Origin: Nostoc punctiforme PCC 73102
GTDB taxonomy: Bacteria; Cyanobacteriota; Cyanobacteriia; Cyanobacteriales; Nostocaceae
NCBI RefSeq assembly: GCF_000020025.1
Contig: NC_010628.1
Location: 2,970,001 to 3,002,000 of the forward strand
Length of the DNA stretch: 32,000 nucleotides
Direction of reading: 5' to 3'
Below are positions 1-22,779 of the stretch, in pieces (position 1 is the first letter of the stretch; each line of letters opens with the position of its first letter). The position numbers and the translations under genes were made by a program. Below the pieces are notes generated by a model. It was not told where the DNA came from, did no database searches, and worked only from the letters and a program-made list of their open reading frames with translations.

Positions 1-189
1 ACTAATAACGCAAAACTGGTGGAATTAATCGATGCAGAAACTGGCGATACTTTTGGTAGAAGTATTTATTGTCTCCCAAGCAACCAGATAAATTTTTTGC
101 CCTGATGCCAAATACCCTAAACTAAGCAATTAACTCGCCGATGTTAGTCCAGTATCCACCTTTGCTCAGATGAAATTTTGCCTCGTTAA
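1..189 (+). pseudogene. 3' relic of a Uma2/DUF820-family endonuclease gene (runs off window start, frame-broken)
   Basis: nt 129-189 align almost base-for-base with the 3' end of the Uma2 pseudogene at 3199-3259 (shared attaactc.ccg ... gatga.att.tgcctcgttaag). The tail reads ...DEILPR* but the upstream part lies in another frame and contains stops. Confidence 0.3.
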
Positions 190-195
190 GCGTTA

Positions 196-575
196 AGTAG
201 GGAAAAGACATCACCTTTACAAGAGTATGAATATAGCAATTTGGGCGGTGAAAAGCCGTAATTACACTGAGGCTACCGCATCAGTACTTTCTATCTTCGC
301 CATTCGTAAATCCATCAGCGCCCTTTTTTATCAGGACTTACGCAAAATCATGAAAAAACGAACCACAGAGGGCGCAGAGGACACGGAGAAATAAGAGTTT
401 CAGAGAGTTATTGCGTAAGTCCTATTTATAACTGATGCAGATCAAAAATGCTAAGGGTGCGAAAGCTTTAATTCCAAAATGTTCGCATACGAGATTAATT
501 TTTCCCAATACCGGAAGCTACACTTGATCTTCATTCGCCAGATAACTTATATATTTTGTAAATTGGACAGGATGC
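196..575 (-). pseudogene. Decayed receiver-domain (NarL-type response regulator) paralog, interrupted by a MITE
   Basis: nt 277-322 match nt 10337-10382 of the intact regulator gene with about 6 mismatches in 45 nt. The minus-strand translation ALMDLRMAKIESTDAVASV* parallels VALMDLRMPKMEGADAIAAI. Stops and frameshifts occur on both sides, and the 93-bp element at 332-424 splits it. Confidence 0.45.
332..424. mobile_element. 93-bp MITE with termini related to the IS at 18451-19699
   Basis: Terminal inverted repeats cAGGACTTACGCAA (332-345) and TTGCGTAAGTCCTa (411-424) are flanked by the direct repeat TTTAT (327-331 and 425-429). The outer 13 nt equal the IS terminus tAGGACTTACGCAt. Confidence 0.65.
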
Positions 576-679
576 TTAACCTACAATATATAGTGCTATA
601 TATTTGTAGTTAAAAATTTTAATAAACCACGAAGGCTTAAAAATCACAAAGCCGGACTTTTGCAAAACAACCGCATTTG

Positions 680-2626
680 ATGAGTAAATCAATTGTTTCA
701 ACAAAACGGCTCAGTAGCCAGTTAATGAACTGGTTGCTTGAAGAAGACCGACGAGAGAAGAAAGGGCCTTACCGCAAGGAAGAAGCACATCGCCAGCATT
801 CTTGGTGGCAGGTAATGTGTTTGACTGGTGTCGATTATTTCTCCACCCTTGGCTATCAACCTGGGATTGCAGCACTCGCAGCTGGCGCTCTTTCTCCTAT
901 CGCTACCCTGATTCTAGTTTTGCTGACGCTCTTTGGAGCATTGCCAATCTATCGGCGAATTGCTGCCGAAAGCCCTCATGGTGAAGGGTCGATCGCAATG
1001 TTAGAGCGTTTGCTCCCTTGGTGGCAAGGCAAATTACTTGTGCTATGCTTACTCGGCTTTGTGGCAACCGACTTTATTATTACCATTACGCTGTCGGCTG
1101 CTGATGCTACAGCCCATATCATCGAAAATCCCCTTACTCCACATTGGTTTCACGAGCAGACGATCGCAATAACCCTAATATTAGTTGCATTACTAGGCGC
1201 AGTTTTCTTGAGAGGTTTCCGAGAAGCGATTGGGATTGCAGTAGTCTTGGTAGCAACTTATCTGCTGTTAAACTTCATTGTCGTTAGCGTCGGTGTATTT
1301 CAAATTTTAACTCACCCAGGAGCGATCGCTAACTGGCAGACTGCACTTTTTGCCCGCCATTCCAATCCTTTTATCTTAATCGGTATATCTCTTTTGATAT
1401 TTCCCAAGCTAGCACTGGGATTATCAGGCTTTGAGACTGGCGTAACCGTGATGCCCCTTGTTAAAGGTAACAGCAGTGACACTCGCCAATATTCCAAAGG
1501 GCGGATTAGGAATACACGCAAGCTGCTCACCAGTGCTGCTCTGATTATGAGCTTCTTTTTGCTCACCACTAGTTTTATAACCACTCTACTGATTCCAGTG
1601 GCAGAATTTGCATCTGGGGGCAAAGCTAACGGACGCGCCCTTGCTTATTTAGCACATTTGCATCTAGGCAACGCCTTTGGCACAATTTACGATCTAAGTA
1701 CTATTTCCATTTTGTGGTTTGCAGGTGCATCTGCAATGGCGGGGCTGCTGAATATTGTGCCTCGCTACCTACCACGCTATGGTATGGCTCCTAATTGGGC
1801 ACGAGTAACGCGACCTTTGGTGTTAGTCTACACTGCGATCGCATTTGTTGTCACAATTATCTTTAGGGCAAATGTGGAAGCCCAAGGTGGGGCTTATGCA
1901 ACTGGTGTGCTTGTATTAATCACTTCAGCAGCCTTTGCTGTTACCTTATCAGCCCACCGTCACAGAGAGAAGCGGGCAAGACTGATTTTTGCTACTATTA
2001 CACTGTTATTTTTATATACCACTATTGTTAACATCATCGAAAGACCAGAGGGGATTAGGATTGCTGGGTTTTTCATCGGTGCAATCATTTTTACTTCCCT
2101 GGTTTCTCGTGTTTGGCGTTCAACGGAACTGCGAGCAGAGCGGATCGAAGTTGACGAACTTGCTGCCCAATTCCTTGCTGAAGAGAGCCAAGGAGCAATA
2201 CGACTGATTGCAAATCGGTTGAATAAGGGTGATGTCCTAGAGTATTTTATGAAAGAGAAAGAGGTACGCGAAGATAACCATATTCCGCCCAACGATCCAA
2301 TCCTTTTTCTAGAGATTCAGGTATCAGATGCTTCAGAATTTGCGGATATCATCAAAGTAAGAGGGGTGCAGGTTGGTGATTATCGCATCTTGCGGGCTGA
2401 GAGTGCAGCAGTCCCCAATGCGATCGCAGCTTTACTGCTGTATATTCGTGACCAAACAGGTAAGATTCCCCATGCTTACTTCGGCTGGGTTGAGGGAAAT
2501 CCCATACAATACTTACTGCGTTTTATCTTGTTTGGAGAGGGCGATATTGCTGTAGTCACCCGTGAAGTACTGCGTCGGGCTGAAAAGAATCCCCAGAGGC
2601 GACCTGGCGTTCATGTCGGGGGTTGA
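680..2626 (+). CDS. Polytopic permease, APC-superfamily-like, with a soluble C-terminal domain
   Basis: Long ORF with about 12 hydrophobic segments in the first ~470 aa, then a ~170-aa hydrophilic C-terminus. ATG at 680 is preferred to the in-frame TTG at 677. The family assignment is from recollection of similar cyanobacterial amino-acid permeases. Confidence 0.6.
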
Positions 2627-2655
2627 GTCAGCATCTTGAATGATTGAAGAGGGAA

Positions 2656-3258
2656 ATGACATATATTTCCGCAAAAACCTTTGCATTTGGAAATTTTGTC
2701 TCTCAATACCGAGATAATCCCCGCTATGAATTGGCTGATGGAGAACTTATTGATATGGAACCCACTGGGCCACACGAAACGGTGAGTGGCAAAGTAGCAA
2801 CCCAAATTGGTATTTACTTTGTTGCAGAACAACTCCCCTGGTTTATTCCTCGCACTTGTTTATATTTACCCCTTTGCAGATGCAGCTACAGTTCGTCGTC
2901 CTGATATCGTCGTTCTTGATGAAACCGTTCTCAACCGTGAACCTCTTTGGGAGCGAGAGCCTGTAATTACAATGGGACGATCCATCAAACTGGTGGTTGA
3001 AGTTGTTAGCAGCAAGTGGGAAACTGACTATGCTCGCAAGGTTGAGGAATATGCCCTCTTAGGCATTCCTGAATATTGGATCGTAGATTATCGAAGATTG
3101 GGCGGTGTGGCATTCATTGGTAAACCTAAACAACCTACTTTCACTGTCTGTCAGTTGGTTGAAGACACATATACTCAACAAAAATATCGGCTAAATCAAT
3201 TAACTCACCGCTTTTGCCTAGTCTGCAACTTCGCTTAGATGACATTCTGCCTCGTTAA
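2656..3258 (+). pseudogene. Uma2 (DUF820) family endonuclease, two frameshifts
   Basis: The N-terminus MTYISAKTF...YELADGELIDMEPTGPHE...LPWFIPRTCL is in frame 1. The core PFADAATVRRPDIVVLDE...VVEVVSSKWETDYARKVEEYALLGIPEYWIVDY is in frame 2. The tail INSPLLPSLQLRLDDILPR* is back in frame 1. Shifts lie near 2865-2880 and 3180-3196. Confidence 0.75.
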
Positions 3259-3260
3259 GT

Positions 3261-3286
3261 GTAGGTGTAGCCCTCGTAGACATCGC
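3261..3286. repeat. Small dispersed repeat motif GTAGGTGTAGCCCTCGTAGACATCGC
   Basis: A near-identical 27-nt copy (GTAGGCGTAGCCCGTCGTAGACATCGC) lies at 31481-31507 inside a CDS. Confidence 0.5.
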
Positions 3287-3388
3287 CTGCTTTAACCGTG
3301 TCATGAGAAGTGCGATCGCCTCAACTAAGACATAAACATCAGGAGCGTTACAAGTTTAACCCAAATGCAGCAATAACCCTTAAATACA

Positions 3389-3937
3389 CTAAGGTAAAAC
3401 ATTTATGGGAGTTCCAATATTAACCAATTCGTACAATGCGATTACATCTTTATTGAGCATCCGAATACAACCATGAGACACAGCTTTACCAATGAGTTTG
3501 TCCTGATTTGTGCCATGAAAAGCTAGATGAGATTTTTTATATATTTTGAATACAATCACACGCTTTCCTAATGGGTTGTTAGCACCTGGCATGATAATAT
3601 TACCTGTCTTGAAGTTTTTAAAGATTGGGTTTTTTTTCATATAAATAACTTGGTAATTGCCAAGTGGGGTTTCCCAACCAGATTTACCAATAGCAATAGG
3701 AAAACTTTTTAAGACTTGTTTATCCTGATATACATAAACTTGGCGTGCGCCACGCTTGACTCTAATACTAATTTTGTGAGTAGTATTATTCTTAGATGGA
3801 GGTATTTTAGGTGGAGATTGTGATTGTTGCGTAATTGCTTTATTAGATGATAATTTCTTGAAATATCCTGATAAAAAACCTTCTGTGAAACATACTATAA
3901 TAGTTATCAAAAATAATATTTTTGTTTTTAAAAACAT
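3389..3937 (-). CDS. L,D-transpeptidase (YkuD domain), membrane anchored
   Basis: Hydrophobic N-terminus (ILFLITIIVCF) and a YkuD catalytic motif LAFHGTNQDKLIGKAVSHGCIRM. The gene is AT-rich. Confidence 0.85.
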   Translation of the reverse strand: MFLKTKILFLITIIVCFTEGFLSGYFKKLSSNKAITQQSQSPPKIPPSKNNTTHKISIRVKRGARQVYVYQDKQVLKSFPIAIGKSGWETPLGNYQVIYMKKNPIFKNFKTGNIIMPGANNPLGKRVIVFKIYKKSHLAFHGTNQDKLIGKAVSHGCIRMLNKDVIALYELVNIGTPINVLP

Positions 3938-4071
3938 ACTGAATGATACAGTTTTTGAACTTCACTTTAAAAAGTGAGGGCTATCAAAAAATCTATGATT
4001 AGATTTTAAATTTATCATTTTTTACTGCCTAAATGATAACTTTACATAAAAGTTTTGACAGACCCTGAATC

Positions 4072-4998
4072 TTACCATAGTGCAGGTACTGATTGTCTTT
4101 TTAACTCATCATGTACTTGTAGAGCTATTTGTTTAGCCCATCCTGGTTTGTTGGTAGTTTTGTTCATTGCTATTTCGTTCATCATGGCTCTGGTTACATT
4201 TGTTTCAAGTCCTTTTATATTTACAGCTTGTTTAATCTGAACTATAGCAAAATCTACATATTGCTTCTCATGGCCTGCAAGGTATTTTGGTTCAGGAATA
4301 TTTCTTATAAATGCTTTTTCTAGTTCTCCAGAGTCAGAGAATTTATCAATATTCTTTTGTAACTGATTGCTAGATTCCTTTTGTATTTGATCCCAGTTTA
4401 TAGATGTTCCAGATTTTTTTATTGCTTCTACCGTATCAAATAATGTTTCTAAGTATGTTAATTTTGTTCTTATATCTATATATAAATTTAACATATTACG
4501 GTCAATTTCTTGCTTTTGCTGGGACTGTGCAGATGTAGCATAGCTGACTGGAATAATAGCAAAATTATTAGGAGCTTTTTGGTTAAATACACTGGGAGTT
4601 ATGTTATTGGGGCTTACGTTATTAGCTACTGAAACAAGTTGTTCACGCCAACCCTCAGCTTGTTTCATGTATCTATATGTGGGGAAATCTGCTAATTGAT
4701 TAGCTGTTATCCGAGAAGCTGCTTTCACATCGAATAAAGCATTCCAAACATATCGAAGCCCCATAGCTCCCTTTTCTACAAACTCTGCCTGAGCAGAAGC
4801 AATATCAGAGGAGTTTTTAATTTTATATCCTAATACTAATTCTTCAGGTTTTTTGTTTAAATCTACCTCTCCATTAATCCTATAAACTACATCAGCTTTA
4901 TTTTGACTCAATTCTATAGGAAGTGATGCATAAACCACAGTTACTGTACTAATACAAAACAAGGTTGCGCCTAAAAAATATCTGCTATACTTCAACAT
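4072..4998 (-). CDS. Secreted protein of unknown function
   Basis: 308-codon ORF with a signal-peptide-like start MLKYSRYFLGATLFCISTVTVVYA. The rest is Asn/Lys/Gln-rich with no domain I recognise. It lies 75 bp downstream of the 496-aa gene on the same strand. Confidence 0.65.
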   Translation of the reverse strand: MLKYSRYFLGATLFCISTVTVVYASLPIELSQNKADVVYRINGEVDLNKKPEELVLGYKIKNSSDIASAQAEFVEKGAMGLRYVWNALFDVKAASRITANQLADFPTYRYMKQAEGWREQLVSVANNVSPNNITPSVFNQKAPNNFAIIPVSYATSAQSQQKQEIDRNMLNLYIDIRTKLTYLETLFDTVEAIKKSGTSINWDQIQKESSNQLQKNIDKFSDSGELEKAFIRNIPEPKYLAGHEKQYVDFAIVQIKQAVNIKGLETNVTRAMMNEIAMNKTTNKPGWAKQIALQVHDELKRQSVPALW

Positions 4999-5073
4999 AA
5001 CTTCTCCGCATTGATTTCAAAAAAACTACTCACTACTATTGATAGTAATTTCATGGTTAGGAAAAACTAATCA

Positions 5074-6564
5074 TTAATTCTCAACAGTCTTCGCATTACG
5101 CAAATAAATAACAAAACCCATAACAATTGCAAAAATCACACCTATTAGTAGATGAAACACCACATCAAATAAAAAACTTAAAGCAAAATTACTAGCCATA
5201 TTATCTTTGGAAATAGATAAATATTTCTCGCTAGGGCTAGGCATGACTGAAGTAGAAATACTGCTAACAGCTAAACCAGTACCTACCAGAGTGATCACTC
5301 GTTCTAGTTGTTGTTCCCGTTTTTGAGCTTTAGCTTCATTAGCTTGATCTAGTTCTGCCTTTTCAGCTTCCAGTTCAGCTCGGTCAATTGCTACCATACC
5401 CTGAACTGTATCAATTAACTGCTGAAATAACTTAGCACCAGGTTCTAGATGCTGACGATAAACTTGGATTTGAGCTTTATACTTATTGTGGGTTAGTTCT
5501 ATAAACTCTTTTAAGAAAGATAAATTATCATCTCCTAATTCACTCAGCTTCTTGAATCTAGATTCGTAATTCTTTATATTGGTTACGATTGTAGTTTCAT
5601 GATCTGCTAAATCCCGTAGGTGTTTGGAGTATTCAATTGCTTTTGTAGGCAATTTAGCCAGTAATTGCTTAAATTTTTTGAGTCGATCAGGACGAGATTT
5701 TGAAACAATAATCTGAAAGTCTTTGATATCTTCTTCTAGCTCGCTGTAGAGTTTTTCAGCTTCATAAAAACACCATTGACACTCATCATAGGCATATAAA
5801 ATTTTGTGGTAGGCGCAAAGTAACTCCAGTAACTGCTCAGACACCTCAGTTAGTTGTTCGTGAGTTGGAGTAGTGTCTGGATTTATGAACCAAACCAAGA
5901 TATGACATCGTTTGGATGGTTCTATTTCCAGCGTCTCATATACAAAAATTTGGTTGCCTAGTAGTTTACCTTCACCAGTTAGAAAAAGTTGAATTTGATT
6001 GTCAAGAAGTTGAGCAACACAATCATCTGCTAACCTCTGTAGCTGCTCATTATCAGTTGGCAGTAGGGGTTGGCCATACAGAAGTAAAGTTTGTCCTATA
6101 GATGCTTTAATGTGTTGAGGCAGCAAAAGTTTTTTTGGATTAAGTTGCTCTAGTTCCTCTAGAAAAATAGCGCCATTACACGAAAAAGTGAGGTCTACAG
6201 CATAGGTGTCATGAAGCCGAAATGGACAGAATGAACTGAGTTTTATATCTGCACTTCCTATTGGTGCAATGGGATTGCATTCTAACTCATCTTGATTCGA
6301 GCGAAGTAGGCTTTGCCGTTTAAGCGTTAATTGGTTCTCTAAGTTCGGCTGATATTGACCGTTTTGATAGCAGATTAGCTCTTGTTTAAGGTCTTGTAGC
6401 GCAGGAAACTGGAGAGTATTTCCTAGTTCTACCAACTGCTCCCAAAGTTGATCAGCTTTTGCTGAAGTTTGCTCTGGCCCCTGACTAATGTCAGTACGCA
6501 GATGGAAAGCATAGAGGGTAAGACTTGGGCTATATAGCCCCTGAGCTAAGGTTGTCTCGCTCAT
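5074..6564 (-). CDS. Unknown protein: ~230-aa globular N-domain, ~190-aa helical/coiled-coil region, two C-terminal TM helices
   Basis: 496-codon ORF. Heptad-like charged helices span aa ~235-420 (e.g. AELEAEKAELDQANEAKAQKREQQLER). Hydrophobic segments are VITLVGTGLAVSSISTSV (aa 423-440) and FALSFLFDVVFHLLIGVIFAIVMGFVIYL (aa 460-488). The gene starts 17 nt after the upstream gene. Confidence 0.8.
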   Translation of the reverse strand: MSETTLAQGLYSPSLTLYAFHLRTDISQGPEQTSAKADQLWEQLVELGNTLQFPALQDLKQELICYQNGQYQPNLENQLTLKRQSLLRSNQDELECNPIAPIGSADIKLSSFCPFRLHDTYAVDLTFSCNGAIFLEELEQLNPKKLLLPQHIKASIGQTLLLYGQPLLPTDNEQLQRLADDCVAQLLDNQIQLFLTGEGKLLGNQIFVYETLEIEPSKRCHILVWFINPDTTPTHEQLTEVSEQLLELLCAYHKILYAYDECQWCFYEAEKLYSELEEDIKDFQIIVSKSRPDRLKKFKQLLAKLPTKAIEYSKHLRDLADHETTIVTNIKNYESRFKKLSELGDDNLSFLKEFIELTHNKYKAQIQVYRQHLEPGAKLFQQLIDTVQGMVAIDRAELEAEKAELDQANEAKAQKREQQLERVITLVGTGLAVSSISTSVMPSPSEKYLSISKDNMASNFALSFLFDVVFHLLIGVIFAIVMGFVIYLRNAKTVEN

Positions 6565-6581
6565 TTCTTAAGTAGGAATAA

Positions 6582-6929
6582 TTATAATTGGGAAGAGGTT
6601 TTGCTTTGAGAAGATGATTTGCTTTGGCGGACGATGTTATCTAGCAAACCTTTAGCTTCTTTCGGTGTAATCCGAGTTGGAATCCCTCCTGCTCCACGTT
6701 CACTAGAGCTACTAATAGGCAGTTTCATCAGTGTATTGTGAATTTGAGGATGTTCTTCTACCCAAATAACTATTGCATCTGATATTTCTTCAATATCTTT
6801 TAGATCATCAGGTAAAGTTGATAGTAAATTCTCTAGAGATGCACGAACTTCTTCTGTAAAAAGTTCAGGATTATTTTGTGCAATGTAATTTAAGTCTTTG
6901 ATAATTTGTTCGTGAATGGATGAAGTCAT
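6582..6929 (-). CDS. Small acidic helical protein with a Ser-rich tail, unknown function
   Basis: 115-codon ORF. The CHAT gene stop TAA is followed directly by AGGAGTAAGCAA and then ATG (6927-6929), giving a canonical Shine-Dalgarno sequence 7 nt upstream. The C-terminal tail is SKSSSQSKTSSQL. Confidence 0.7.
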   Translation of the reverse strand: MTSSIHEQIIKDLNYIAQNNPELFTEEVRASLENLLSTLPDDLKDIEEISDAIVIWVEEHPQIHNTLMKLPISSSSERGAGGIPTRITPKEAKGLLDNIVRQSKSSSQSKTSSQL

Positions 6930-6941
6930 TTGCTTACTCCT

Positions 6942-9665
6942 TTATTGACCAATAGCACAGAATGCTGCCCAGTGATAAGGCTGACAAAATGGTTGTTCTT
7001 CATCTTGATGCTGAAGAAGAGAGCGTTCTAGATAGAATTTGTCAGTGCGCCTGATGGATAAATTTTCAATCCATTGCTCTAATTCCGTCCTCGTTGAAAA
7101 AAAGCTTCTTAGGTTAAATTGATCTATATAATTAAGGGACAAACTTTCAATCCACTGCTCAAGCGGCTGCTTAGTCCACTGCTCAATCGACTGCTTAAAT
7201 TGCGTTCTCGTTAAATCCCGCAACCATATCTGAGCTTTGTTGAGTGCAATGGCTACAGCACTTTCTTCTAGTTCGGAAGACTTATTCCAATGTTCTATTA
7301 AGTTTTCGTAAAATTTGATCATCAACAAGGCAGTAGAAATATCATTCACTTTCCAGAGACTAGCGACAATGCTGGGACTGCCTGCAAATAAGAAGCTACT
7401 AGGTAGACCAATGTATTCATCACTGATACTATCAGGATCTACCATTCCTGTTTCGCAGCCTGAGAGAGTGACAAGGCGGCATTTATCAAGAGTTAGTCCA
7501 AAAATTTCGGCTAGGGTAAGCCTTCCATCTTCTTTTTGTGTTTCAGACCCATGTTCGGCTAATAGTAGTGCTGATTCTAAAGGAGATTTCAGGTCAAACT
7601 CACCATGACAACAAAAGTGGCAACAATGAGATGAAGGTAGGTTTTCACTGACCTTGAGGGTAACTTCGCTGGCATCTGTCTCTTGCAATACATAATTAGA
7701 GGAAAAAAATGAGCGGATAACGTCAACTTCTAACTTGGCATATTTTAGGCTAGCCAAAACATTTTTGGGATTCTGAACAGCGAACAAATTGCTAAATTCA
7801 GTACGTTGCAGTCTTTGGCTTAATTGCAACAGTTGGCAACTAGGAGCATAACGCACACCACCTTCAAATTCGTCTAAAAGACATTTATTTTGTTCTTCGG
7901 ATAAAGGTAGAGCGTGTAGGGGTAACAAATGTAAGAAGCGGTGGGGGACTAATATCAATCGATTACAAGTTTCAGGAATATGAGATAGTATTTCTTCGAT
8001 ATGCAGAATCTTTGCTAATTCCCTAAACTGACTATTCAGTTTGCTTTGCCACTTTTCTTTATCTGTTGCATAGTAAGCTTGGAGGTATTGTTTACACAAA
8101 CTGATTAAACTGTCTAAATCTTCGGATGAGAATGTCAATACAAGAGGTATGTTTTTTATTTCTGACTCTTTATTATGCTTAACGATAAAAGTAATAATTT
8201 TACTATTAGTAATATACCACTCAATGAGTACAGTATCTTCTTTTACTAAAGCTTGCATCTCACTAAAAGAGATTTTATTAACTTTCTGAGTAAATTTAAA
8301 CGTTTTGTCTATGTAATTAATTTCTTTTAAAAGTTCATCTCGTTTCTTTCGCAATGATTTTAATTCTTCTTGGCTTTCTTTCTGCCGTTGTTTACTTGAA
8401 TTTTTTCTTCGCAATTCATCAAGTTCTTTGCAATGTCTTTCATAGTATTCTTGTTTCCCTTGTCTGTCATAGAAGTCTTCTTTGGGATATAAGTTTTTGG
8501 TTGTTAGTAGTTCAACAAGGTTGCGAGACTTACTAAGTTCAGCGTATTCCATAGCATCAGCAAAGTACTGAGGCTGATCTTGAGCTAGTTCTAAACAAAC
8601 TTCTATTATGTTTTGATAATAAGGATTCCATTCTTCAGCCAATTTTTGTTTATCTACTTCAATCCCAGAGCCAGAGATTATTTCTGCTCGGAGAGATTCT
8701 GCAATATTAATTGCAGCAGCAAAGGCTGTATGAGCTTTAGTGTAGTTTTCAGCATTTTGGTAGGCATATCCAATATTACCTTGAGTTGTTGCCCACTCAT
8801 GGGGAAAATCATCACTATTATAGATTTGTAAAGCTGATTCAAAAGCCTGAACTGCCAACTTTAAATTATCTTTTTTATATCCATTTTTTCTTTTAATATA
8901 AGCCATTCCAAGATTATTTTTGATTTTAGCCCATTGGCTGGGATATTGTTTATTAATTAATTTTTTTAGTACTGAATTGAAAATATGAATTGCTTGTTCT
9001 AAATTATCTTCCTTATTTCCTTGTTGTCTTTTAAGATAAGCATTAGCAAGATTATTTTGAGTTATAGCCCAATCGCTAGTAAATTTATCAACAGTGTAAA
9101 CTTGCAAAGCTAATTCAAAAGCCTGTATTGCTTTTTCTATATTATTTACATCTTCTTTTTCTAATTGCATATAAGCATAACCAATTTGATTTTGAGTCCA
9201 CGCCCAATTTTCAGGAAAACCTTCGCAACTGTAAACTTGCAAAGCTAATTCAAAAGACTTAATTGCTGCTTCTAAATTGTTATTCTTATCTCCTCTGAGG
9301 CGGTAACAGTAAGTAATGCCAAGATTAGTTTGTGTCTTAGCCCATTCGTTACTAAAACGTCCACCAATGTAAATTGGCAAAGCTGATTTGAAAGCTTCAA
9401 TTGCTAGTTCCAGGTTTTCCGCCGTCTCACCTCTTATCCGGCAATTGTAGGCACAACCAAGTTCATTTTGAATCCATGCCCAGTCTTGGGGAAAAGCCTC
9501 ACGGGTATAGAATTTTTCTTGTAGAAGTTTATACCCAGCAATAGCTATTTCTATATTACTGGCTTTTCTACCACAAGGAAAATACAAGAATAGCTGACTG
9601 AATACAGCAATAACTGAGGCAATCTTTTCTAAAACTTTTTGTAATATATGTTCCAACAAACTCAT
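6942..9665 (-). CDS. TPR-repeat / CHAT-domain caspase-like protease
   Basis: Six ~46-aa repeats follow the pattern FPxxWAxTQNNLGxAYxxRxxGxxxxNLExAIxAFExALQVY (aa ~55-330, DNA ~8680-9500). The C-terminal CHAT core has the His in HFCCHGEF (codon 7605-7607), the Cys in LSGCETG (codon 7455-7457) and the typical ending PYHWAAFCAIGQ. Confidence 0.9.
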   Translation of the reverse strand: MSLLEHILQKVLEKIASVIAVFSQLFLYFPCGRKASNIEIAIAGYKLLQEKFYTREAFPQDWAWIQNELGCAYNCRIRGETAENLELAIEAFKSALPIYIGGRFSNEWAKTQTNLGITYCYRLRGDKNNNLEAAIKSFELALQVYSCEGFPENWAWTQNQIGYAYMQLEKEDVNNIEKAIQAFELALQVYTVDKFTSDWAITQNNLANAYLKRQQGNKEDNLEQAIHIFNSVLKKLINKQYPSQWAKIKNNLGMAYIKRKNGYKKDNLKLAVQAFESALQIYNSDDFPHEWATTQGNIGYAYQNAENYTKAHTAFAAAINIAESLRAEIISGSGIEVDKQKLAEEWNPYYQNIIEVCLELAQDQPQYFADAMEYAELSKSRNLVELLTTKNLYPKEDFYDRQGKQEYYERHCKELDELRRKNSSKQRQKESQEELKSLRKKRDELLKEINYIDKTFKFTQKVNKISFSEMQALVKEDTVLIEWYITNSKIITFIVKHNKESEIKNIPLVLTFSSEDLDSLISLCKQYLQAYYATDKEKWQSKLNSQFRELAKILHIEEILSHIPETCNRLILVPHRFLHLLPLHALPLSEEQNKCLLDEFEGGVRYAPSCQLLQLSQRLQRTEFSNLFAVQNPKNVLASLKYAKLEVDVIRSFFSSNYVLQETDASEVTLKVSENLPSSHCCHFCCHGEFDLKSPLESALLLAEHGSETQKEDGRLTLAEIFGLTLDKCRLVTLSGCETGMVDPDSISDEYIGLPSSFLFAGSPSIVASLWKVNDISTALLMIKFYENLIEHWNKSSELEESAVAIALNKAQIWLRDLTRTQFKQSIEQWTKQPLEQWIESLSLNYIDQFNLRSFFSTRTELEQWIENLSIRRTDKFYLERSLLQHQDEEQPFCQPYHWAAFCAIGQ

Positions 9666-9715
9666 GCTTTTTACCTAAATAATAGCCACCCAAATTAGTA
9701 AAGACTAAGTAGGAT

Positions 9716-9754
9716 ATATAATTAATTAAAACTAACTATTTTAATTAATTATAT
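9716..9754. promoter_or_regulatory. Perfect 16-bp AT-only inverted repeat (ATATAATTAATTAAAA-7nt-TTTTAATTAATTATAT)
   Basis: Arms at 9716-9731 and 9739-9754, read directly. It lies 51-89 nt upstream of the CHAT start codon and about 165 nt downstream of the regulator gene stop. Confidence 0.35.
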
Positions 9755-9916
9755 GAATGCGATCGCCACCCCATCCAAGTATTTTGATCGCCTTTCTCAT
9801 GTTTGTACAAATGACAACTAAGTGAATATACTAAGCCTAGAAAATAAGCTCAACTTTGTCACTAGCGAAATGTTGGGCTTTAAACTTATCAAAATGTGAG
9901 GTCGAGAAGCTGCAAA

Positions 9917-10552
9917 CTACAGCCTGACAATCCCTCGATTCAGTGCAGTGACTAGGGCTTGAGTCCGATCGCTAACGTTCAACTTTCCGAAAATATTATT
10001 GGTATGGAACCTGACGGTACTCTCAGCAATATTGAGGACATTGCTAATCTGCTGGTTATTCTTACCCTTGGCGATCAGGCGCAGCACTTCCAACTCACGA
10101 TCGCTCAATTCCTCACTACTCATCCGTTCAGCTAGCTTGGCTGCTATAGTTGGCGGAATATACTTTTGTCCTTTATGAACAGTGCGAATCGCATCCAAGA
10201 GTTCGTTCGGTTCCGCACCTTTAAGGAGATAGCCCTTTGCACCAGCCCGCAATCCGCGATAGATATCTTCATCGCCATCAAAGGTAGTCAACACAACGAT
10301 TCGGGCGTGTTTAAACTTAGCACAGATGGCTGCGATCGCATCAGCACCTTCCATCTTCGGCATTCGCAAATCCATCAGCGCCACATCAGGTTGATGTTGG
10401 TGGAAAAGTTCTAACGCTTCTCGCCCGTCGCCAGCATGGCCGATTACAGTCATATCTGACTCACATTGAAGAAACATTGTTAAAGCTTGTCCCAAGATGG
10501 GATGATCGTCAGCAAGTAGGATACGAATGACATTAGATTGACTCATAATCAT
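9917..10552 (-). CDS. Response regulator, NarL/LuxR family (REC + HTH)
   Basis: The receiver domain shows LLADDHP...ALMDLRMPKMEG...KGYLLK. The C-terminal LuxR-type HTH shows LSDRELEVLRLIAKGKNNQQISNVLNIAESTVRFHTNNIFGKL. The gene abuts the kinase stop codon. Confidence 0.9.
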   Translation of the reverse strand: MIMSQSNVIRILLADDHPILGQALTMFLQCESDMTVIGHAGDGREALELFHQHQPDVALMDLRMPKMEGADAIAAICAKFKHARIVVLTTFDGDEDIYRGLRAGAKGYLLKGAEPNELLDAIRTVHKGQKYIPPTIAAKLAERMSSEELSDRELEVLRLIAKGKNNQQISNVLNIAESTVRFHTNNIFGKLNVSDRTQALVTALNRGIVRL

Positions 10553-13339
10553 TTACTCTCGGTAGACTAACACTGAAACTTCTGTTCCCTGTCCTGGCGA
10601 ACTCTGAATTGTTAGTTTTGCCCCGATGCATTCAGCCCGTTCGCTCATGACTAAAAGCCCAAAGCTGTTGATAACAGATACACTGGCGATGTCAAACCCT
10701 TGTCCATCATCTTTGATTCGCAAGCTGCACTGGCTTTCTTGATACGCCAGTTCAATTTGGATTTCTCCAGCTTGGGCATATTTGAAGGCATTGGTTAATG
10801 CTTCTTGTCCAATGCGGAGTAGGTTATTTTCAACATCTGGAGACAAGGGGTATATCTCGCCTATTAATTGGCAGACAATATGTGTATTGCTAGGGGAAAA
10901 CATCTGTGTTGCGAAGCGATTGAGAGCATTAAAAATGTTGCCGTCCTCCAATAATTGAGAGCGTAATGCTTTGATCGAACGGCGTGCTTCAGTTAGCCCA
11001 GAATGAGCTAAGTCTCGCCCTGCTTTGATTAATTTCTGTGCTACTTCTATATCTGTCGTCAGTTTTCGTGAGGCGGTATCTAAGTGGACAATAACAACTG
11101 TGAAGGCTTGTGCTAAAGTATCGTGAATTTCCTGTGCCAAGCGGTTACGTTCTGCCAATACAGTTGCTTCTTCAGCCTGCTTACGACTAGTGATATCCTG
11201 TATTGCAGCCATCCTGATGGTACGCCCACGATATGACATGACTCTGGCTCTGATCTCAGCCGGAAATGTGCTTCCATCCTTACGCAGACAAACGGTTTCA
11301 TAAATTCCTTCATCTCCTGAGCGAATCTTCTGCATCACTTGTTCTCGATATTCAGGAGCAGTAAAATCCATGACACGCATACCAAGCAACTCCGAAAGTT
11401 CATAACCAAACATCTCAGCACAGGTTTGGTTAGTATCTAAAAGTATGCCTTGTTCGGTAATAGCGATCGCTTCAAATGTTGCCTCTGCCAACAGCCGAAA
11501 TCGCGTCTCGCTTTCTAGAAGTGCTACTTCTGCCTGCTTGCGTTCAGCGATTTCTCGTTGTAGCTCCAGGGTACGTTGAGTAACCTGTTGCTCTAAAACG
11601 GAATTATAATCAGCTAGGATCTTCTCTGCTTTTTTGCGTTCGGTAATATCAATACAAACAGTGAGCGCATATATTACTTTCCCTGATTCATCAAAAATTG
11701 GGGTGCTTAAAACTTCTATAGGGATAGTTTTATTAGGGTGGCGAAACTCCATATTATCAATGTGGACTGTTTTACCTACCAAAGAATACATAATTGGTAG
11801 TTCATCAGTAGGGTATAAGTAGTCAGTTTCAGCTAGATAAATTTGATAATATTCTGCTATCTTTTCGGGTTTGATAGATGGCAATAAGTCTACGCTGATT
11901 AATTTTTGCACAGCTCGATTATTATAGTAAATTTCCCCATACGGATCGTTTATCGAAATAGCTACAGGCACAGCATCAAGAAATTGCTTCAGGCGGGTTT
12001 CACTCTGCAATAAAGCCTTATTTAAATCCTGCATTTCCGAAAATTTTGCTTGGAGTTGATCCGCCATATTATTAAATGATCTGGCTAATTCCCCCAATTC
12101 ATCGGAACGCTCTATTTTTATTCTTTTTTCCCATTCACCTTGAGCAAGTGCTAAAGCTGATTTTTTTAAAGCTAGAACTGGTTCAGCAATCCACCGTAAA
12201 ATCAAAACACCGACAGCTACAGCCACTATCAAAGCAACAATACACAGCACAATAGTGGTGCGGGTATTAGCATTAATTTCTTCCATGAAGTCATTTTCTG
12301 GGACGACTACCACAATTAACCAGTCAAGTCCCCGATTATCTTGGAAGGGTAAAACTCGAATAAACTGCCGCTTACCATCTATCGAAAAATATAATTGCTG
12401 TGAGCTATTAATTGACTTAAATTCATTAAATTTACTTTTTAAATATTTACTAGTGCATTGTGTTTTTTTATCCTTACTATCTATAGCCAAAAATGGCTTA
12501 ATTCTATTTTCTGCTAATTGTGTTTTAAAATTATTTGAGTGGAAAGGCTTTTCATTAGTTGAGGTTGCTACCAATCTTCCAGAATGACGCTCAACAATAA
12601 AACTTATTCCTGTTTTACCAATTTTTAAATTTTGCAGAAAAGTGCCAATTTTAGATAAGTTTAAATTTGAGAGTAATACACCTTGCAAATTTCCCTGTTT
12701 ATCGTAAGCAGGCTGACTAGCAGCGATGTACAAAGCAATGCCAGAATTATGAGGATAAATTTCACTCCAAACTGGTCTTTGTTTTGCTATCGCTTTGTTA
12801 TACCAATTACGTCTTTGAGTATCATAAGGTTTGCCAAAATCCTTTATTCCCGTGCGTGTGCTTTGTTTATTAGTAGTATAAGTCCGCAAATTATACTTAG
12901 TTGATTTACCAGATGCTCTGATTGTCAAAGAGCCATCAGGAAATATTTCTGCTGAAATAAACTCTTTATTCGTATTTGCAAATCCAATTAGACTTACTTG
13001 ATTAAATACTTCTAACTGGTCAAAAAAATAATGTTCTAAGACGGTCAAATCTTGTACATCTAATTGACCAAGTTTAATAGCATTAGCATTATTCTGATTA
13101 ATTTGTTGGGGAGTTTCAAGAAAAGTATGCAGATTCTGCTGAACACGCTGGCTAATTTCACTTAGTAGCCGTGTGGCAATATTATTTACTGCTTTTTGCC
13201 CATTTTTGAATGAGAGATAACCTGTTAAACTCGCCACCGCTAAAATTTGCAGAATAAAGGGAATAATCAGAACGGTTCGCAGAGAAGGTTTAACGGGAAG
13301 AGAAAGAAAGTATTGAAGATATGATATTTTGTTAAACAA
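10553..13339 (-). CDS. Sensor histidine kinase: periplasmic Cache-like domain, HAMP, two PAS, HisKA_3, HATPase
   Basis: Two TM segments bracket a ~320-aa extracytoplasmic domain. HAMP is marked by SDELGELARSFNNMADQL and PAS regions by the DITERK and DITSRK ends. The H-box is ERNRLAQEIHDTLAQ and the ATPase carries the DDGQGF and G-rich motifs. Confidence 0.9.
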   Translation of the reverse strand: MFNKISYLQYFLSLPVKPSLRTVLIIPFILQILAVASLTGYLSFKNGQKAVNNIATRLLSEISQRVQQNLHTFLETPQQINQNNANAIKLGQLDVQDLTVLEHYFFDQLEVFNQVSLIGFANTNKEFISAEIFPDGSLTIRASGKSTKYNLRTYTTNKQSTRTGIKDFGKPYDTQRRNWYNKAIAKQRPVWSEIYPHNSGIALYIAASQPAYDKQGNLQGVLLSNLNLSKIGTFLQNLKIGKTGISFIVERHSGRLVATSTNEKPFHSNNFKTQLAENRIKPFLAIDSKDKKTQCTSKYLKSKFNEFKSINSSQQLYFSIDGKRQFIRVLPFQDNRGLDWLIVVVVPENDFMEEINANTRTTIVLCIVALIVAVAVGVLILRWIAEPVLALKKSALALAQGEWEKRIKIERSDELGELARSFNNMADQLQAKFSEMQDLNKALLQSETRLKQFLDAVPVAISINDPYGEIYYNNRAVQKLISVDLLPSIKPEKIAEYYQIYLAETDYLYPTDELPIMYSLVGKTVHIDNMEFRHPNKTIPIEVLSTPIFDESGKVIYALTVCIDITERKKAEKILADYNSVLEQQVTQRTLELQREIAERKQAEVALLESETRFRLLAEATFEAIAITEQGILLDTNQTCAEMFGYELSELLGMRVMDFTAPEYREQVMQKIRSGDEGIYETVCLRKDGSTFPAEIRARVMSYRGRTIRMAAIQDITSRKQAEEATVLAERNRLAQEIHDTLAQAFTVVIVHLDTASRKLTTDIEVAQKLIKAGRDLAHSGLTEARRSIKALRSQLLEDGNIFNALNRFATQMFSPSNTHIVCQLIGEIYPLSPDVENNLLRIGQEALTNAFKYAQAGEIQIELAYQESQCSLRIKDDGQGFDIASVSVINSFGLLVMSERAECIGAKLTIQSSPGQGTEVSVLVYRE

Positions 13340-13819
13340 TAAAATATTCCTTTTATTGTCAAGACTATAAAATTTACTTAAGAAATTAAACTTCAGAAAT
13401 TTTTAAGTGTCTGAAGCAGAAGTAGTTCAGGCTTTTTAACTCATCCTGCATTCACTACAGCACTTTTATTTTGATTAATAATGAATGTTTCCTTTAAGTT
13501 GTATAGTCAGCAATTTTATTTGGATAACATATATTGAATTTTATGTAGGAGTAAAAATCATTTTTGCATAATCTAGTTCTAAAAAATGCATACAGAAAGA
13601 TTAATCGTAAAAAATCTCTCTTAGGATAGATGTTTATTTTATTTTTTAAAATTAGGCATAAACTATATAACTACAAGACAATCAAAACAATTTCCGCAAT
13701 CATCTACAACCAAAAGCTATAATTTTTTGAGGAAATTGTAATTTCCTGCATTTTCTCAGATTTTCCAACCAGCCTTAAAGGATGTTTGAAAAGTAGTTCC
13801 TTGTTATTCCAGGCTCTTA

Positions 13820-13990
13820 TTGATCCCCCCTAACCCACGCCAGTCGCTCCAGTTTGCAAGACCAGAATCAAAGTCCCCCTTTTTAAGGCAATACAGTTCA
13901 CATAAGACCAAAACACTTGTAGAGACGGCAATTTATCGCGTCTCAAAAACCCAAGATTTTGTACTTTTTAAGGGGGATTTAGCAGGGTGG
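13820..13990. repeat. Degenerate Nostoc-type intergenic repeat cluster
   Basis: Contains GATCCCCCCTAACCC, GTCCCCCTTTTTAAGG / TTTTTAAGGGGGATTTAG and the palindromic GTAGAGACGGCAATTTATCGCGTCTC. The last is related to CGCGATGAATCGCGTCTCTAC at 15020-15040. The 66-aa ORF called here is a translation of these repeats. Confidence 0.45.
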
Positions 13991-14139
13991 TTTCATACAA
14001 AAAAAGAAAAATACATTTAATAAAGTGTTTTTAGTAACATCAAAATATTCCAAATCTAACCAACGGTTTTTTGGAAATGAGCGTAGTAAAATTTTCAAAA
14101 TATGTGGGAGTGTTTAGAATTTAATCTTCTTAAATTGGG

Positions 14140-14919
14140 TTATTTTTCTGTTCGCCGATTAACTAACGTAGCGCTAGCTTGGTCAACAGGCATCAGCACA
14201 ACTTCGTTAATATTGACATGGGGCGATCGCGTCACACAGAAAAATATCACATCAGCCACATCATCTGCTGTCAGTGGGATAACTCCTTGATAGACCGTTT
14301 TAGCACGTTCAGTATTTCCGTGAAACCGCACCTCGCTAAATTCCGTTTCCACCATACCAGGGTCAACGGAAGTTACACGTACCCGCGTTCCCAACAAGTC
14401 TTGTTTTAAACCTTCAGAAATTGCTCTCACAGCAGCTTTGGTAGCACAGTAGACATTGCCACCGGGATAGGTTTGATGTCCGGCAATGGAACCTAAATTT
14501 ACCACATGGCCGCGATCGCGACTCACCATTCCCGGAACAACATAACGGGAAACATAAAGTAAACCCTTAACGTTAGTATCAATCATGTCTTCCCAGTCTT
14601 GAAAGCTGCCTTCGTGCAACTTGTCTAAACCACGACTTAGACCAGCATTGTTAATCAGAATGTCGATGTTAGACCAGGCAGGCGGTAGAGTAGAGATGGC
14701 AGATTCGACAGCGTTGCGATCGCGCACATCTAGCTGTAATAAATGAATTTCAATACCAAATTCTTTAATGAGAGCATCTTTTAGCTGCTGCAAACGTTCT
14801 AACCGTCGTGCTGCTAGGATTAGTTTTGCACCCGCACCAGCGAAGATTCTCGCACAAGCAGTACCAATACCACTACTTGCGCCAGTAATCAAAATGATTT
14901 GATTTTGTAGGGAAGTCAT
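14140..14919 (-). CDS. Short-chain dehydrogenase/reductase (NADP-dependent, YdfG-like)
   Basis: Carries TGASSGIG cofactor motif, NNAG, and the catalytic S...YCATKAA. Confidence 0.9.
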   Translation of the reverse strand: MTSLQNQIILITGASSGIGTACARIFAGAGAKLILAARRLERLQQLKDALIKEFGIEIHLLQLDVRDRNAVESAISTLPPAWSNIDILINNAGLSRGLDKLHEGSFQDWEDMIDTNVKGLLYVSRYVVPGMVSRDRGHVVNLGSIAGHQTYPGGNVYCATKAAVRAISEGLKQDLLGTRVRVTSVDPGMVETEFSEVRFHGNTERAKTVYQGVIPLTADDVADVIFFCVTRSPHVNINEVVLMPVDQASATLVNRRTEK

Positions 14920-14936
14920 TAGGATAGTTAGAAGTG

Positions 14937-15036
14937 AGGAGTTAATAGTTATGAATTATGAATTAGCACAAGTTTCATAGTTCATAATTTATCATCAGTC
15001 GCTCCTAACTCCTAATAAACGCGATGAATCGCGTCT
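14937..15036 (-). terminator. Intergenic stem-loops directly after the stop codon (candidate terminator / repeat element)
   Basis: The stem ACGCGA-TGAA-TCGCGT (15019-15034) begins 2 nt after the TAG at 15037-15039. On the transcribed strand it is followed by UUAUU. A longer imperfect hairpin runs from AGGAGTTA (14937-14944) to TAACTCCT (15006-15013), with TTATGAA heptamer repeats inside. Confidence 0.3.
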
Positions 15037-15876
15037 CTACTTCTTCACCACTTGTAGGCGCTGAGTTACCATCGTCATTCCATTACCTCGCAGGATGACA
15101 GCAGAAACCCATTGACTACCAGGGGTTGATGGTGCTTGTCCCGTCTTAAACAGTCCACCGGATGTTAATAATTGCAAATCTACGGGTGTGGGGTTGAGAA
15201 ATTTCTCTGGTTGGATGGTTTCCTCTAGCGCCGTTCCTAGGAGAAAATCATCACCAAGTGGCTCTTGGACGATCGCATCAAAATTATACTTCTGACCAAC
15301 TTGTACCTGTTGTGGTAATTTAATATCAATTTTGGGTGGCTTGCTGCCAGAGGTAAGTAGGGTGCGTTCTGCCAAAATATCTTGGCGGACGATTTTACCG
15401 CTTTCAATTCGCTGACGCGATTTAATCGTGGCATTGAGAGCCAAATTATTCCCGCTACTGGAGGGTAAGCCAGTTATTTTCGTCTCTGTTTCGGCAATAA
15501 TCCCATTGCCTTCCGATTTTGAAGATAACAGTTTGGTACTGTATTGTAATTTAGGATATCGTTGCCAAAGTGAAACCAAAGACTTTTCTAGGGTTTGGAG
15601 GTTTAATCCATCCCCATGAGTGAAAGAAGGGCTATAGAATTGCAACACCCCTTTGACATCACCCTTGCTGGCAGCTGCATCGACTTGTGTCAACAGGTTT
15701 TTTAAATCGGTTGGTGCATTTTGAACTGTACCAGTTTGGGCTAATTGCTGTGGTGTCGTCGCTTGAGTGCGTTGCCAACCACTTGTTAAACCAAGGGTTA
15801 GCAGGAACGAAACCAGCCAAATACTGGCTGGAAATTTGAGTTGGCGTTTTGCAAAAGCAGTAATAATTTTAGTCAT
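15037..15876 (-). CDS. Secreted/anchored conserved hypothetical with an NTF2/SnoaL-like N-terminal part
   Basis: 279-codon ORF with a hydrophobic leader ASIWLVSFLLTLGL. The domain guess rests only on the pattern of the segment VLQFYSPSFTHGDGLNLQTLEKSLVSLWQRYPKLQY. Confidence 0.7.
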   Translation of the reverse strand: MTKIITAFAKRQLKFPASIWLVSFLLTLGLTSGWQRTQATTPQQLAQTGTVQNAPTDLKNLLTQVDAAASKGDVKGVLQFYSPSFTHGDGLNLQTLEKSLVSLWQRYPKLQYSTKLLSSKSEGNGIIAETETKITGLPSSSGNNLALNATIKSRQRIESGKIVRQDILAERTLLTSGSKPPKIDIKLPQQVQVGQKYNFDAIVQEPLGDDFLLGTALEETIQPEKFLNPTPVDLQLLTSGGLFKTGQAPSTPGSQWVSAVILRGNGMTMVTQRLQVVKK

Positions 15877-15960
15877 TGGTAAGAGTTTACTGATTTGATG
15901 AGAGAAAGTCAGGAAATTGTTTTATCTTAGTTAAGCTAGACGCTAAACGGTAGAGGTTTG

Positions 15961-17034
15961 ATGGCAAACGCACCGATACGATTATTAATAGCTGCCAGTG
16001 GGACTGGTGGACACTTGTTTCCAGCGATCGCACTGGCAGAAAAACTTCCAGATTATCAAATCGAATGGCTGGGAGTACCCAATCGGCTAGAAACTCAACT
16101 TGTCCCTAAAGAGTATCCCTTGAATACTATTGCAGTTGAGGGGTTTCAGCAAGGGTTTGGACTCTCCTCGATTCGCATCTTCGGTAAACTCGCTGGTTCG
16201 ATTATAGAAGTCAGACGAATTCTCAAACAGGGAAATTTTCAAGGGGTGTTTACCACTGGCGGTTACATTGCCGGGCCAGCCGTTATTGCGGCACGTTCTC
16301 TCGGTTTACCCGTGGTTTTCCACGAATCTAATGCCTTACCAGGTAAAGTAACTCGCTTTTTTGGCCCTTGGTGTAGTGCGGTAGCCTTGGGATTTGAAGT
16401 AGCTGCTAAGTATTTGCCTCGTGCCAAAAATGTCTGTGTTGGTACTCCTGTAAGAGGGCAATTTCTCGATGGGGCAATTAATTCACCCCTGGATTTAGCC
16501 ATTCCTGATGGTGTTCCCTTAATTGTCGTCTTTGGTGGTAGCCAAGGTGCAGTTGCGGTTAATAAGTTGGTGCGCGAGTCTGCAAAGGCTTGGTTTGATG
16601 CTGGTGCTTATGTAGTACATTTAACTGGCGATCGCGATCCCGAAGCAGATAGTCTCAAACATCCACAGTACATAGCCTTACCTTTTTACAACAATATGGC
16701 GGCGTTGTTGCAACGAGCAACTCTTGCCATTAGTCGTTCTGGTGCCGGTAGCTTGACAGAATTAGCAGTGTGTGGAACACCAGCAATTTTGATCCCTTAC
16801 CCCTTTGCCGCAGAAGACCATCAATCTTACAATGCAGACGTATTTACTTCATCTGGTGCGGCGTTAACACTGAAGCAATCGGAGTTGACGGCACAAATAT
16901 TGCAAAGTAATGTGTTGAATTTGTTGCAGTCACCGCAAGAGTTAGCAAAGATGGGTGAAAACGCTCATGCGATCGCAGTTCCCGATAGTGCCGAAAAATT
17001 GGCGCAATTAGTGCGTGAGGTGGTGGAAACATAA
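15961..17034 (+). CDS. murG: UDP-N-acetylglucosamine--N-acetylmuramyl-(pentapeptide) pyrophosphoryl-undecaprenol GlcNAc transferase
   Basis: N-terminal G-loop AASGTGGHLFPAIALAE and the C-terminal SRSGAGSLTELAVCGTPAILIPYPFAAEDHQSYNA signature. ATG at 15961, just after the in-frame TTG at 15958. Confidence 0.92.
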   Translation: MANAPIRLLIAASGTGGHLFPAIALAEKLPDYQIEWLGVPNRLETQLVPKEYPLNTIAVEGFQQGFGLSSIRIFGKLAGSIIEVRRILKQGNFQGVFTTGGYIAGPAVIAARSLGLPVVFHESNALPGKVTRFFGPWCSAVALGFEVAAKYLPRAKNVCVGTPVRGQFLDGAINSPLDLAIPDGVPLIVVFGGSQGAVAVNKLVRESAKAWFDAGAYVVHLTGDRDPEADSLKHPQYIALPFYNNMAALLQRATLAISRSGAGSLTELAVCGTPAILIPYPFAAEDHQSYNADVFTSSGAALTLKQSELTAQILQSNVLNLLQSPQELAKMGENAHAIAVPDSAEKLAQLVREVVET

Positions 17035-20752: not shown

Positions 20753-20781
20753 ACCTGTCCTCCTGATTAACGCTCCGAGTC

Positions 20782-20966: not shown

Positions 20967-20978
20967 CGCTCCGAGTCC

Positions 20979-21541: not shown

Positions 21542-21595
21542 CTCTACCTCCTAAAGTGTTGGCTAGACTTGGTTTTTTCGTGTTCTTATGGGGTT

Positions 21596-22774: not shown

Positions 22775-22779
22775 AATCT

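Follow-up and report, generated by a model that had tools for sequence, protein, structure and literature searches.

Why would a filamentous cyanobacterium encode a protein of no recognizable family, ending in a predicted transmembrane hairpin, just downstream of a caspase-like protease? The question arises in a 32,000-nucleotide stretch of Nostoc punctiforme PCC 73102 (contig NC_010628.1; hereafter the window, meaning the whole stretch at its full length), in which the open-reading-frame (ORF) listing places an ATG-initiated frame for 496 amino acids at positions 5074–6564 of the minus strand. This target ORF is a real gene, because Nostoc sp. FACHB-133 carries a 497-residue protein 99% identical to its product and a word-indexed protein search returned 125 homologues at E ≤ 1e-3. 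An original prediction, made from the DNA letters alone, had described a soluble domain, long helices and a C-terminal hairpin, and had taken the protein for the largest partner of the neighbouring CHAT protease and the best candidate for its substrate or effector. The best explanation of the evidence below is that the target is the membrane-effector subunit of a three-part cassette, consisting of a tetratricopeptide-repeat (TPR)–CHAT protease, a domain of ~115 residues and the module protein itself.

We modelled the target with AlphaFold2 from an 81-sequence family alignment, obtaining a mean predicted local distance difference test (pLDDT) score of 93.1 and a predicted template-modelling (pTM) score of 0.82. 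From the N-terminus, the protein comprises a cytosolic α/β domain, ~190 residues of long helices and a C-terminal two-transmembrane hairpin, so that ORF listing, hydropathy and model together bear out the layout first proposed. Residues 1–232 (5869–6564, minus strand, as are all features of the target) form the cytosolic α/β part of a conserved N-terminal module (the N-module; pLDDT 93.4 and pTM 0.90 when modelled alone), its strands and helices lying between residues 9 and 226, in agreement with the alternating β/α character noted earlier. Residues 233–397 (5374–5868) form a helical bundle that completes the N-module, built from long helices at 235–287 and 291–341 and the start of a third at 349–440. 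This third helix continues through a charged stalk of variable length rich in Glu, Lys, Gln and Ala (residues 398–422; 5299–5373) directly into the first transmembrane helix. As turns of 3–7 residues separate the helices, the region is an antiparallel bundle with a stalk and not a canonical parallel coiled coil; of the ~190-residue coiled coil in the original prediction, the helical sequence is real, whereas the model resolves it as a three-helix antiparallel bundle plus stalk.

The two hydrophobic segments differ in character. TM1 (residues 423–441; 5242–5298) is weakly hydrophobic, with a Kyte–Doolittle peak of 1.63, and is rich in Gly, Ser and Thr (LVGTGLAVSSISTSV), which account for 9 of the 15 residues at 426–440; the family alignment gives the motif VGxGxAVSxIS. 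The same alignment places a short periplasmic loop at residues 442–455 (5200–5241), lacking the Gly-Met-Asn (GMN) signature discussed below, ahead of TM2 and a short basic C-terminal tail (residues 456–496 and the stop codon; 5074–5199), which the model renders as a helix at 456–495. Kyte–Doolittle windows mark residues 456–492 (5089–5199) as strongly hydrophobic, peaking at 2.88, and Asp467 and His471 in this helix are conserved among close relatives. Together the two segments match the hairpin that had been placed at about 5095–5296.

The stalk provides a quantitative clue. For 215 TM-type members we measured stalk length, from the module end to TM1, as the distance between two small anchoring hidden Markov models (HMMs). 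The in-phase distances (23, 27, 30, 34, 37, 41, 48, 52, 55, 59, 63, 70, 73 and 77) follow 23 + round(3.6n), that is, whole turns of an α-helix. Helical phase was kept by 208 of 215 sequences; of 16 distinct non-reference lengths, 13 kept it, where chance would give 5/18 for each (binomial probability of about 1e-5 on distinct lengths), with only 39, 62 and 85 out of phase; the target value of 41 equals 23 + 18, or five turns. Two control intervals, one spanning the loop between TM1 and TM2 and the other the turn between helices 1 and 2, took continuous length values with no quantization. The linker is therefore a continuous, rigid α-helix, and selection acts on the angular register that it sets between the module and TM1. 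Such phase is expected if the module mechanically controls the transmembrane helices, and is not expected of a slack tether or of a stretch that is simply cut.

The family is large, and it is defined by its N-terminus. At least 999 representatives of 50%-identity clusters matched at E ≤ 1e-3 and 526 at E ≤ 1e-30, and 240 loci were found among 185,579 species genomes. Most hosts are filamentous cyanobacteria (Nostoc, Microcoleus, Moorena, Symploca, Coleofasciculus, Scytonema and Trichodesmium), joined by a few Beggiatoaceae (Marithrix and Parabeggiatoa) and Desulfobacteraceae; one copy lies on a Pseudanabaena plasmid. BLAST boundaries put the conserved unit at ~395 N-terminal residues, and homology to a set of paralogues carrying the domain bDLD1 stops at about residues 387–413. 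Beyond this point the family diverges. Most members of 460–560 residues carry the two-transmembrane hairpin, and Pfam searches on paralogues revealed alternative C-termini, either bDLD1 (PF20689) with Trypsin_2, Metallophos or PNP_UDP_1, or CHAT; bDLD1 was found in 15 of 81 family members. Because the C-terminus varies behind a constant N-module, the hairpin occupies an exchangeable effector position, which upholds the candidacy of the protein as an effector. A constant module with a variable C-terminus is the pattern expected for an effector slot on a regulatory domain.

The N-module itself resembles nothing we could name. Scans of five cassette-region proteins gave no Pfam, NCBIfam or PADLOC match for the target, the 115-residue protein or a downstream 308-residue protein, in line with the earlier statement that no family could be assigned. 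Modelled alone, the N-domain had no significant Foldseek match in the PDB or BFVD (best E = 0.05), and its weak, repeated matches to Pol-beta-NTase/RelA-SpoT-like folds, over 75–105 residues at template-modelling scores of ~0.2, were not taken as homology. Searched against PDB sequences, the family profile drew only chance spectrin matches and no CorA. Conserved polar residues of the α/β domain are W41, D119, Y121, D124, T126, N142, G157, Q158, T159, E208, Y209, H221 and W225, and conserved residues of the bundle are K254, Y312, N329, N332, Y333, F354 and Q365; D119, Y121, G157, T159, K254, N329, N332 and Q365 are all present in the target and at least 96% conserved across 233 members. With these polar residues and no significant fold match in either database, the N-domain is a candidate for a new ligand sensor. 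The cysteines are less telling. The target has nine (65, 96, 113, 129, 182, 220, 250, 262 and 265), as the mention of several had implied; Cys is the majority residue at position 182, in 81% of the 233 members, and likewise at position 265 in the 81-sequence alignment, but C262 belongs to neither consensus, so that the ECQWC stretch singled out before (residues 261–265) is no conserved CxxC site.

Genomic linkage ties the module to the protease. The first gene of the cassette in the window (6942–9665, minus strand) encodes a 907-residue TPR-CHAT caspase-like protease (Pfam CHAT, E = 1.2e-50, with TPR_12 and TPR_10), in which the catalytic dyad is complete, with its His in CCHGEF and its Cys in LSGCETG; among related domains the dyad His is kept in 82 of 83 and the Cys in 83 of 83. 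We called ORFs in 86 fetched loci and the window and searched them with phmmer and HMMs, recovering 89 module genes. In 74 of these, the 2.5 kb upstream hold a CHAT gene in the same orientation, the exceptions falling mostly at contig ends. In one representative, P0211, a TPR-CHAT protease is fused directly to the module. Identities of CHAT and module co-vary (r = 0.66; 0 of 999 Mantel permutations reached this value), and several genomes carry multiple cassettes that diverge in both. Linkage, fusion and co-divergence all support the proposal of a dedicated CHAT partner.

That proposal had left out a third conserved component. Between the CHAT gene and the target, spaced 12 and 17 nucleotides from them respectively, lies a gene for a 115-residue protein (6582–6929, minus strand) with homologues in cassette loci. 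It has a helical N-terminal part, an invariant Trp56, a G-x-G-G loop (RGAGG, residues 77–81), an N..R helix and a Ser/Gln-rich tail. Aetokthonos, Marithrix, an Aerosakkonemataceae genome and a distant JGI contig show this gene order too, with the small gene after CHAT and before the module. The small domain is free-standing between the CHAT and module genes in 35 loci and fused to the CHAT C-terminus in 21 (for example, residues 857–961 of 962 in locus L003), whereas in bDLD1-type loci it is encoded downstream of the module gene. Searches with the 115-residue protein and with a 22-sequence profile gave 4 and 19 matches, respectively, all free-standing small proteins and none a new fusion, and hhalign detected no relationship between the small domain and the module. 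The 115-residue protein probably serves the CHAT protease as an adaptor or regulator. The target locus carries all the parts by which we define the cassette: a dyad-intact TPR-CHAT gene upstream, a small domain with the Trp and G-x-G-G features, the conserved N-module and a stalk of whole turns.

Some loci depart from this compact arrangement. The most distant cassette found (L007, 7226–7749; L008, 3322–3845) carries a RelB/ParE pair and a 75-residue ORF between the small and module genes. In L004 (1–7822) and L006 (3988–18250), three to four TPR-CHAT genes are stacked around the module gene, beside which L006 has two DUF1822 genes; such stacking suggests proteases acting in cascade, or paralogous sensors in arrays.

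A sister branch of the family places the same module in a better-described setting. The bDLD1-type effectors are true homologues of the target, sharing the ~395-residue N-module at 37–45% identity, a TPR-CHAT gene directly upstream and the same host range. They differ in carrying a Death-like domain with a trypsin, phosphoesterase or PNP domain in place of the hairpin, and in their neighbours: an iSTAND homologue was found in 17 of 17 of these hairpin-less loci, and MoxR and vWA genes in most. In contrast, the target had no bDLD1 match in Pfam, and searches of window positions 1–16000 and of the TM-type loci found no homologue of iSTAND, MoxR or vWA proteins; the other large window ORFs that were scanned either match housekeeping or two-component domains or lack any Pfam match. 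Ternary conflict systems of iSTAND, MoxR and vWA proteins, with bDLD1 under the name EAD3, are described by Kaur, Burroughs, Iyer and Aravind 2020 (PMC7159879), and bDLD1 effector proteins of such systems also by Kaur et al. 2021 (PMC8195603); the N-module is named in neither text as far as read, nor in the supplements of two Aravind-laboratory papers (Kaur et al.). The bDLD1 branch of the family belongs to these iSTAND ternary conflict systems, and the branch of the target is a compact, stand-alone cassette. The literature searched on combinations of CHAT, two-transmembrane, CorA-like and iSTAND proteins yielded no description of the N-module, the small domain or the TM-type cassette. The protein family and its fold appear new, as do the three-part cassette and its phase-locked stalk, although the concept of a caspase-like protease with a membrane effector is already familiar.

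How might such a cassette work? We infer that the target acts as a gated membrane-pore effector, controlled by the CHAT protease together with the small adaptor domain, and that its depolarizing activity serves an abortive-infection or altruistic death response; we give this reading a little less than an even chance. The ~395 N-terminal residues would be the regulatory module, cytosolic and constant across the family, in which a new α/β domain packs against a three-helix bundle, and the rigid stalk would couple it in fixed angular register to the Gly/Ser/Thr-rich TM1 and the hydrophobic TM2. At rest, the module would keep the hairpin closed or unassembled. Upon some trigger, the active CHAT protease, docked through the small domain, might cleave or remodel one of its two partners, the 115-residue protein or the module; the latter would then turn or release the stalk, allowing the transmembrane helices of a putative oligomer to open an ion-conducting pore. 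The membrane would depolarize, and the cell would arrest or die, as in abortive infection or an altruistic death within the filament. The conflict-system context of this proposal derives from the bDLD1 paralogues in iSTAND loci, the RelB/ParE insertion, the multiple divergent cassettes and the filamentous hosts.

A likeness to CorA, Mrs2 and ZntB channels (PF01544) bears on this proposal and on one of its rivals. When the full-length model was searched against the PDB with Foldseek, the top 11 matches were all CorA/Mrs2 proteins (E = 3.6e-4 to 1e-2), and the target shares with them a cytosolic α/β domain followed by long helices, a stalk helix that runs on into TM1, then TM2 after a short outer loop, and a basic tail, with two C-terminal transmembrane helices in an N-in/C-in topology in the model. 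This layout is closer than the tail-anchored or helical pore-forming proteins to which the target had been likened; ClyA stood at rank 38 with a probability of 0.23, and an ESCRT-like assignment was likewise displaced. A reader might therefore take the target for a divergent housekeeping CorA-type divalent-cation channel standing beside the protease by chance, citing also weak PF01544 matches in 5 of 81 members (best E = 0.12) and the stable syntenic position in Nostocaceae. We consider this hardly credible. The hallmark of CorA channels is the GMN signature at the outer end of TM1, and in a comparison alignment of 11 sequences, for which E. coli corA and nine diverse plasmid CorA genes were fetched, G277-M278-N279 is invariant; none of the 81 family members has it, the sequence after TM1 reading ...ISxxVxPxP... 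(SVMPSPSEKY in the target). Pfam gave no PF01544 match to the target, and hhalign aligned the family with the CorA set at a probability of 11.7%, over a single stretch that weakly brings stalk end and TM1 into register with their CorA counterparts, so that CorA homology is not established. The N-domain, moreover, does not have the cytosolic α/β/α domain of the CorA fold. Given these failed sequence and domain tests, the target is CorA-like in architecture and not a CorA family member. Sister proteins swap the hairpin for soluble death-domain and protease modules, CHAT linkage is obligate, and the distribution is patchy, multi-copy and limited to filamentous bacteria. Sequence, N-domain, linkage and distribution together largely refute a housekeeping channel.

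Several of the same observations also weigh against the gated-pore reading. Besides the missing GMN signature and the low hhalign probability, the CorA/Mrs2 matches had low template-modelling scores (0.12–0.20, at a root-mean-square deviation of ~20 Å), making the likeness architectural only, and CorA was not among the top 50 PDB matches of the N-domain model. The residue ahead of the G-x-G-G loop of the small domain varies (R, K, M, C or A), and being unconserved it leaves the loop no obvious cleavage site. PADLOC models matched no cassette gene, so that an immune role is argued by analogy only, and the stable Nostocaceae synteny beside a two-component system would suit a physiological or developmental role equally well.

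Three further readings share much of this evidence. The N-module may be a hitherto unrecognized oligomerizing, possibly ligand-binding platform, akin to an apoptosome or a channel hub, that with a phase-locked stalk turns a hairpin into a CHAT-controlled death channel of a non-gasdermin type and a Death-like domain into a device for clustering proteases or nucleotide-degrading enzymes in iSTAND–MoxR–vWA systems. This generalization is possible but doubtful; if it held, one module would link helical ion-channel gating and death-domain signalling in multicellular bacteria. Alternatively, the N-module could be an auto-inhibitory pro-domain, with a CHAT cut in or near the charged linker freeing the hairpin as a membrane-disrupting peptide and, in paralogues, the bDLD1-enzyme. 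An active-type protease is always adjacent, the linker is charged and variable in length, and variable effectors behind a constant N-module would fit the proteolytic effector release proposed for related systems in PMC7159879. A tether that need only be cut, however, should not keep whole-turn lengths, and the implied importance of angular register argues against simple release of the hairpin; nor do TM-type and bDLD1-type members share a cleavage-like motif at the junction. We therefore regard release by cleavage as unlikely.

Less likely again, in our judgement, is that the hairpin merely tethers the complex to the inner membrane, while the N-module senses a signal such as a nucleotide or an envelope cue and the actual effector is the CHAT protease, a role that TPR-CHAT proteases reportedly have in type III-E systems. 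The conserved polar residues of the α/β domain and bundle could form a ligand site if they cluster, as the helix geometry suggests, and the weak but recurrent resemblance to nucleotidyltransferase and RelA-SpoT folds points the same way. Yet paralogues hold evident enzymatic effectors, not anchors, at the hairpin position, the polar conserved TM1 and the Asp/His of TM2 in close relatives would be unusual for a passive anchor, and plain tethering needs no conservation of stalk phase.

The proposed gated-pore cassette has several known counterparts in logic. Animal pyroptosis centres on membrane pores triggered by caspase-like proteases, and by way of gasdermins such proteases have the same central place in some bacterial defences. 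The bacterial gasdermin operons of Johnson et al. are said to encode a caspase-like or CHAT protease beside a membrane-permeabilizing effector, the same logic as here. The target, however, is a transmembrane-helix protein whereas gasdermin is a soluble β-sheet pore former, and no gasdermin appeared for the target in Pfam or among the Foldseek matches listed. The cassette suggests a second, structurally unrelated route, in which a helical channel-like effector stands under CHAT control.

Type III-E Craspase offers another parallel, in that the TPR-CHAT protease Csx29, with Cas7-11 and Csx30, has a dedicated neighbouring partner; Csx29 reportedly acts as an effector by cleaving Csx30. The window protease scored 71.5 bits against NCBIfam Csx29 (NF041237), far under the cut-off of 300, and is therefore not Csx29. 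The target is unrelated to Csx30, and the flanks hold a two-component system and clade-specific neighbours instead of cas genes, so membership of this system was rejected. EACC1, described as a small single-transmembrane domain encoded 5′ of a caspase, mainly in actinobacteria (Kaur et al. 2020, PMC7159879), likewise pairs a membrane protein with a caspase-superfamily protease in multicellular bacteria. The target differs in having 496 residues and two transmembrane helices, in being encoded 3′ of the protease and in occurring mainly in cyanobacteria; the single transmembrane helix and actinobacterial range of EACC1 do not fit. Bell/HeLo-like small proteins of amyloid-signalling gene pairs were also considered and set aside, by comparison with their description only.

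A divergent CRISPR-associated CorA comes closest to the proposed membrane part. In some type III CRISPR systems this protein is a membrane effector activated by SAM-AMP, and its N-terminal domain has a unique fold (Chi et al. 2023, PMC10600005). The target also carries an N-terminal domain of unfamiliar fold ahead of its membrane part, although its partner is a CHAT protease and not a CRISPR system or a nucleotide signal. The CRISPR protein sets a precedent for a CorA-like immune membrane effector with a unique N-domain.

These comparisons give the family a wider interest. It is large and unannotated, and is concentrated in filamentous multicellular bacteria, where the sacrifice of one cell protects the filament. 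As the sister branch uses the same module in death-domain/iSTAND systems, one solved member would inform hundreds of predicted systems, and the whole-turn rule of the stalk offers a cheap and sharp mutational handle on gating.

The remaining genes around the target are less widely shared. Downstream by 75 nucleotides, a minus-strand gene (4072–4998) encodes a 308-residue protein that begins with a signal or anchor sequence and matches no family. Its homologues were found only in the three syntenic Nostocaceae loci L009–L011 and in none of the other ~80 loci, and a YkuD gene farther downstream is conserved only in close Nostocaceae; this restriction indicates that neither is a core component, and the 308-residue protein is probably a clade-specific neighbour outside the core cassette. 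It diverges fast, with a phmmer E of only 6.7e-102 against a locus ~94% identical in DNA. Just upstream of the cassette, on the same strand, lie a LuxR-type response regulator (9917–10552, minus strand) and a 928-residue sensor kinase (10553–13339, minus strand). This pair (the kinase with a HisKA_3 domain) is syntenic with the cassette in L009–L011 and is not found beside it in other lineages; it could regulate the cassette. A scan for promoters and terminators gave nothing above chance and did not define the operon ends.

Elsewhere in the window, a second pair of a HisKA_3 histidine kinase and a LuxR-type response regulator lies at 23859–25786 (minus strand). Two ORFs without a Pfam match, one of 438 residues (17073–18389, plus strand) and one of 279 residues (15037–15876, minus strand), adjoin a murG-like gene (15958–17034) and short-chain dehydrogenase genes. 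A further ORF of 1204 residues (28380–31994, minus strand) had no Pfam match at E ≤ 1e-4; its start lies 6 nucleotides from the window end, so that it may be longer. The segment at 20001–23000, which carries genes for an aldo/keto reductase, a zinc alcohol dehydrogenase and a polyketide-cyclase-like protein, has a G+C fraction of 0.50–0.58, compared with 0.32–0.47 in the rest of the window, and may be of different origin.

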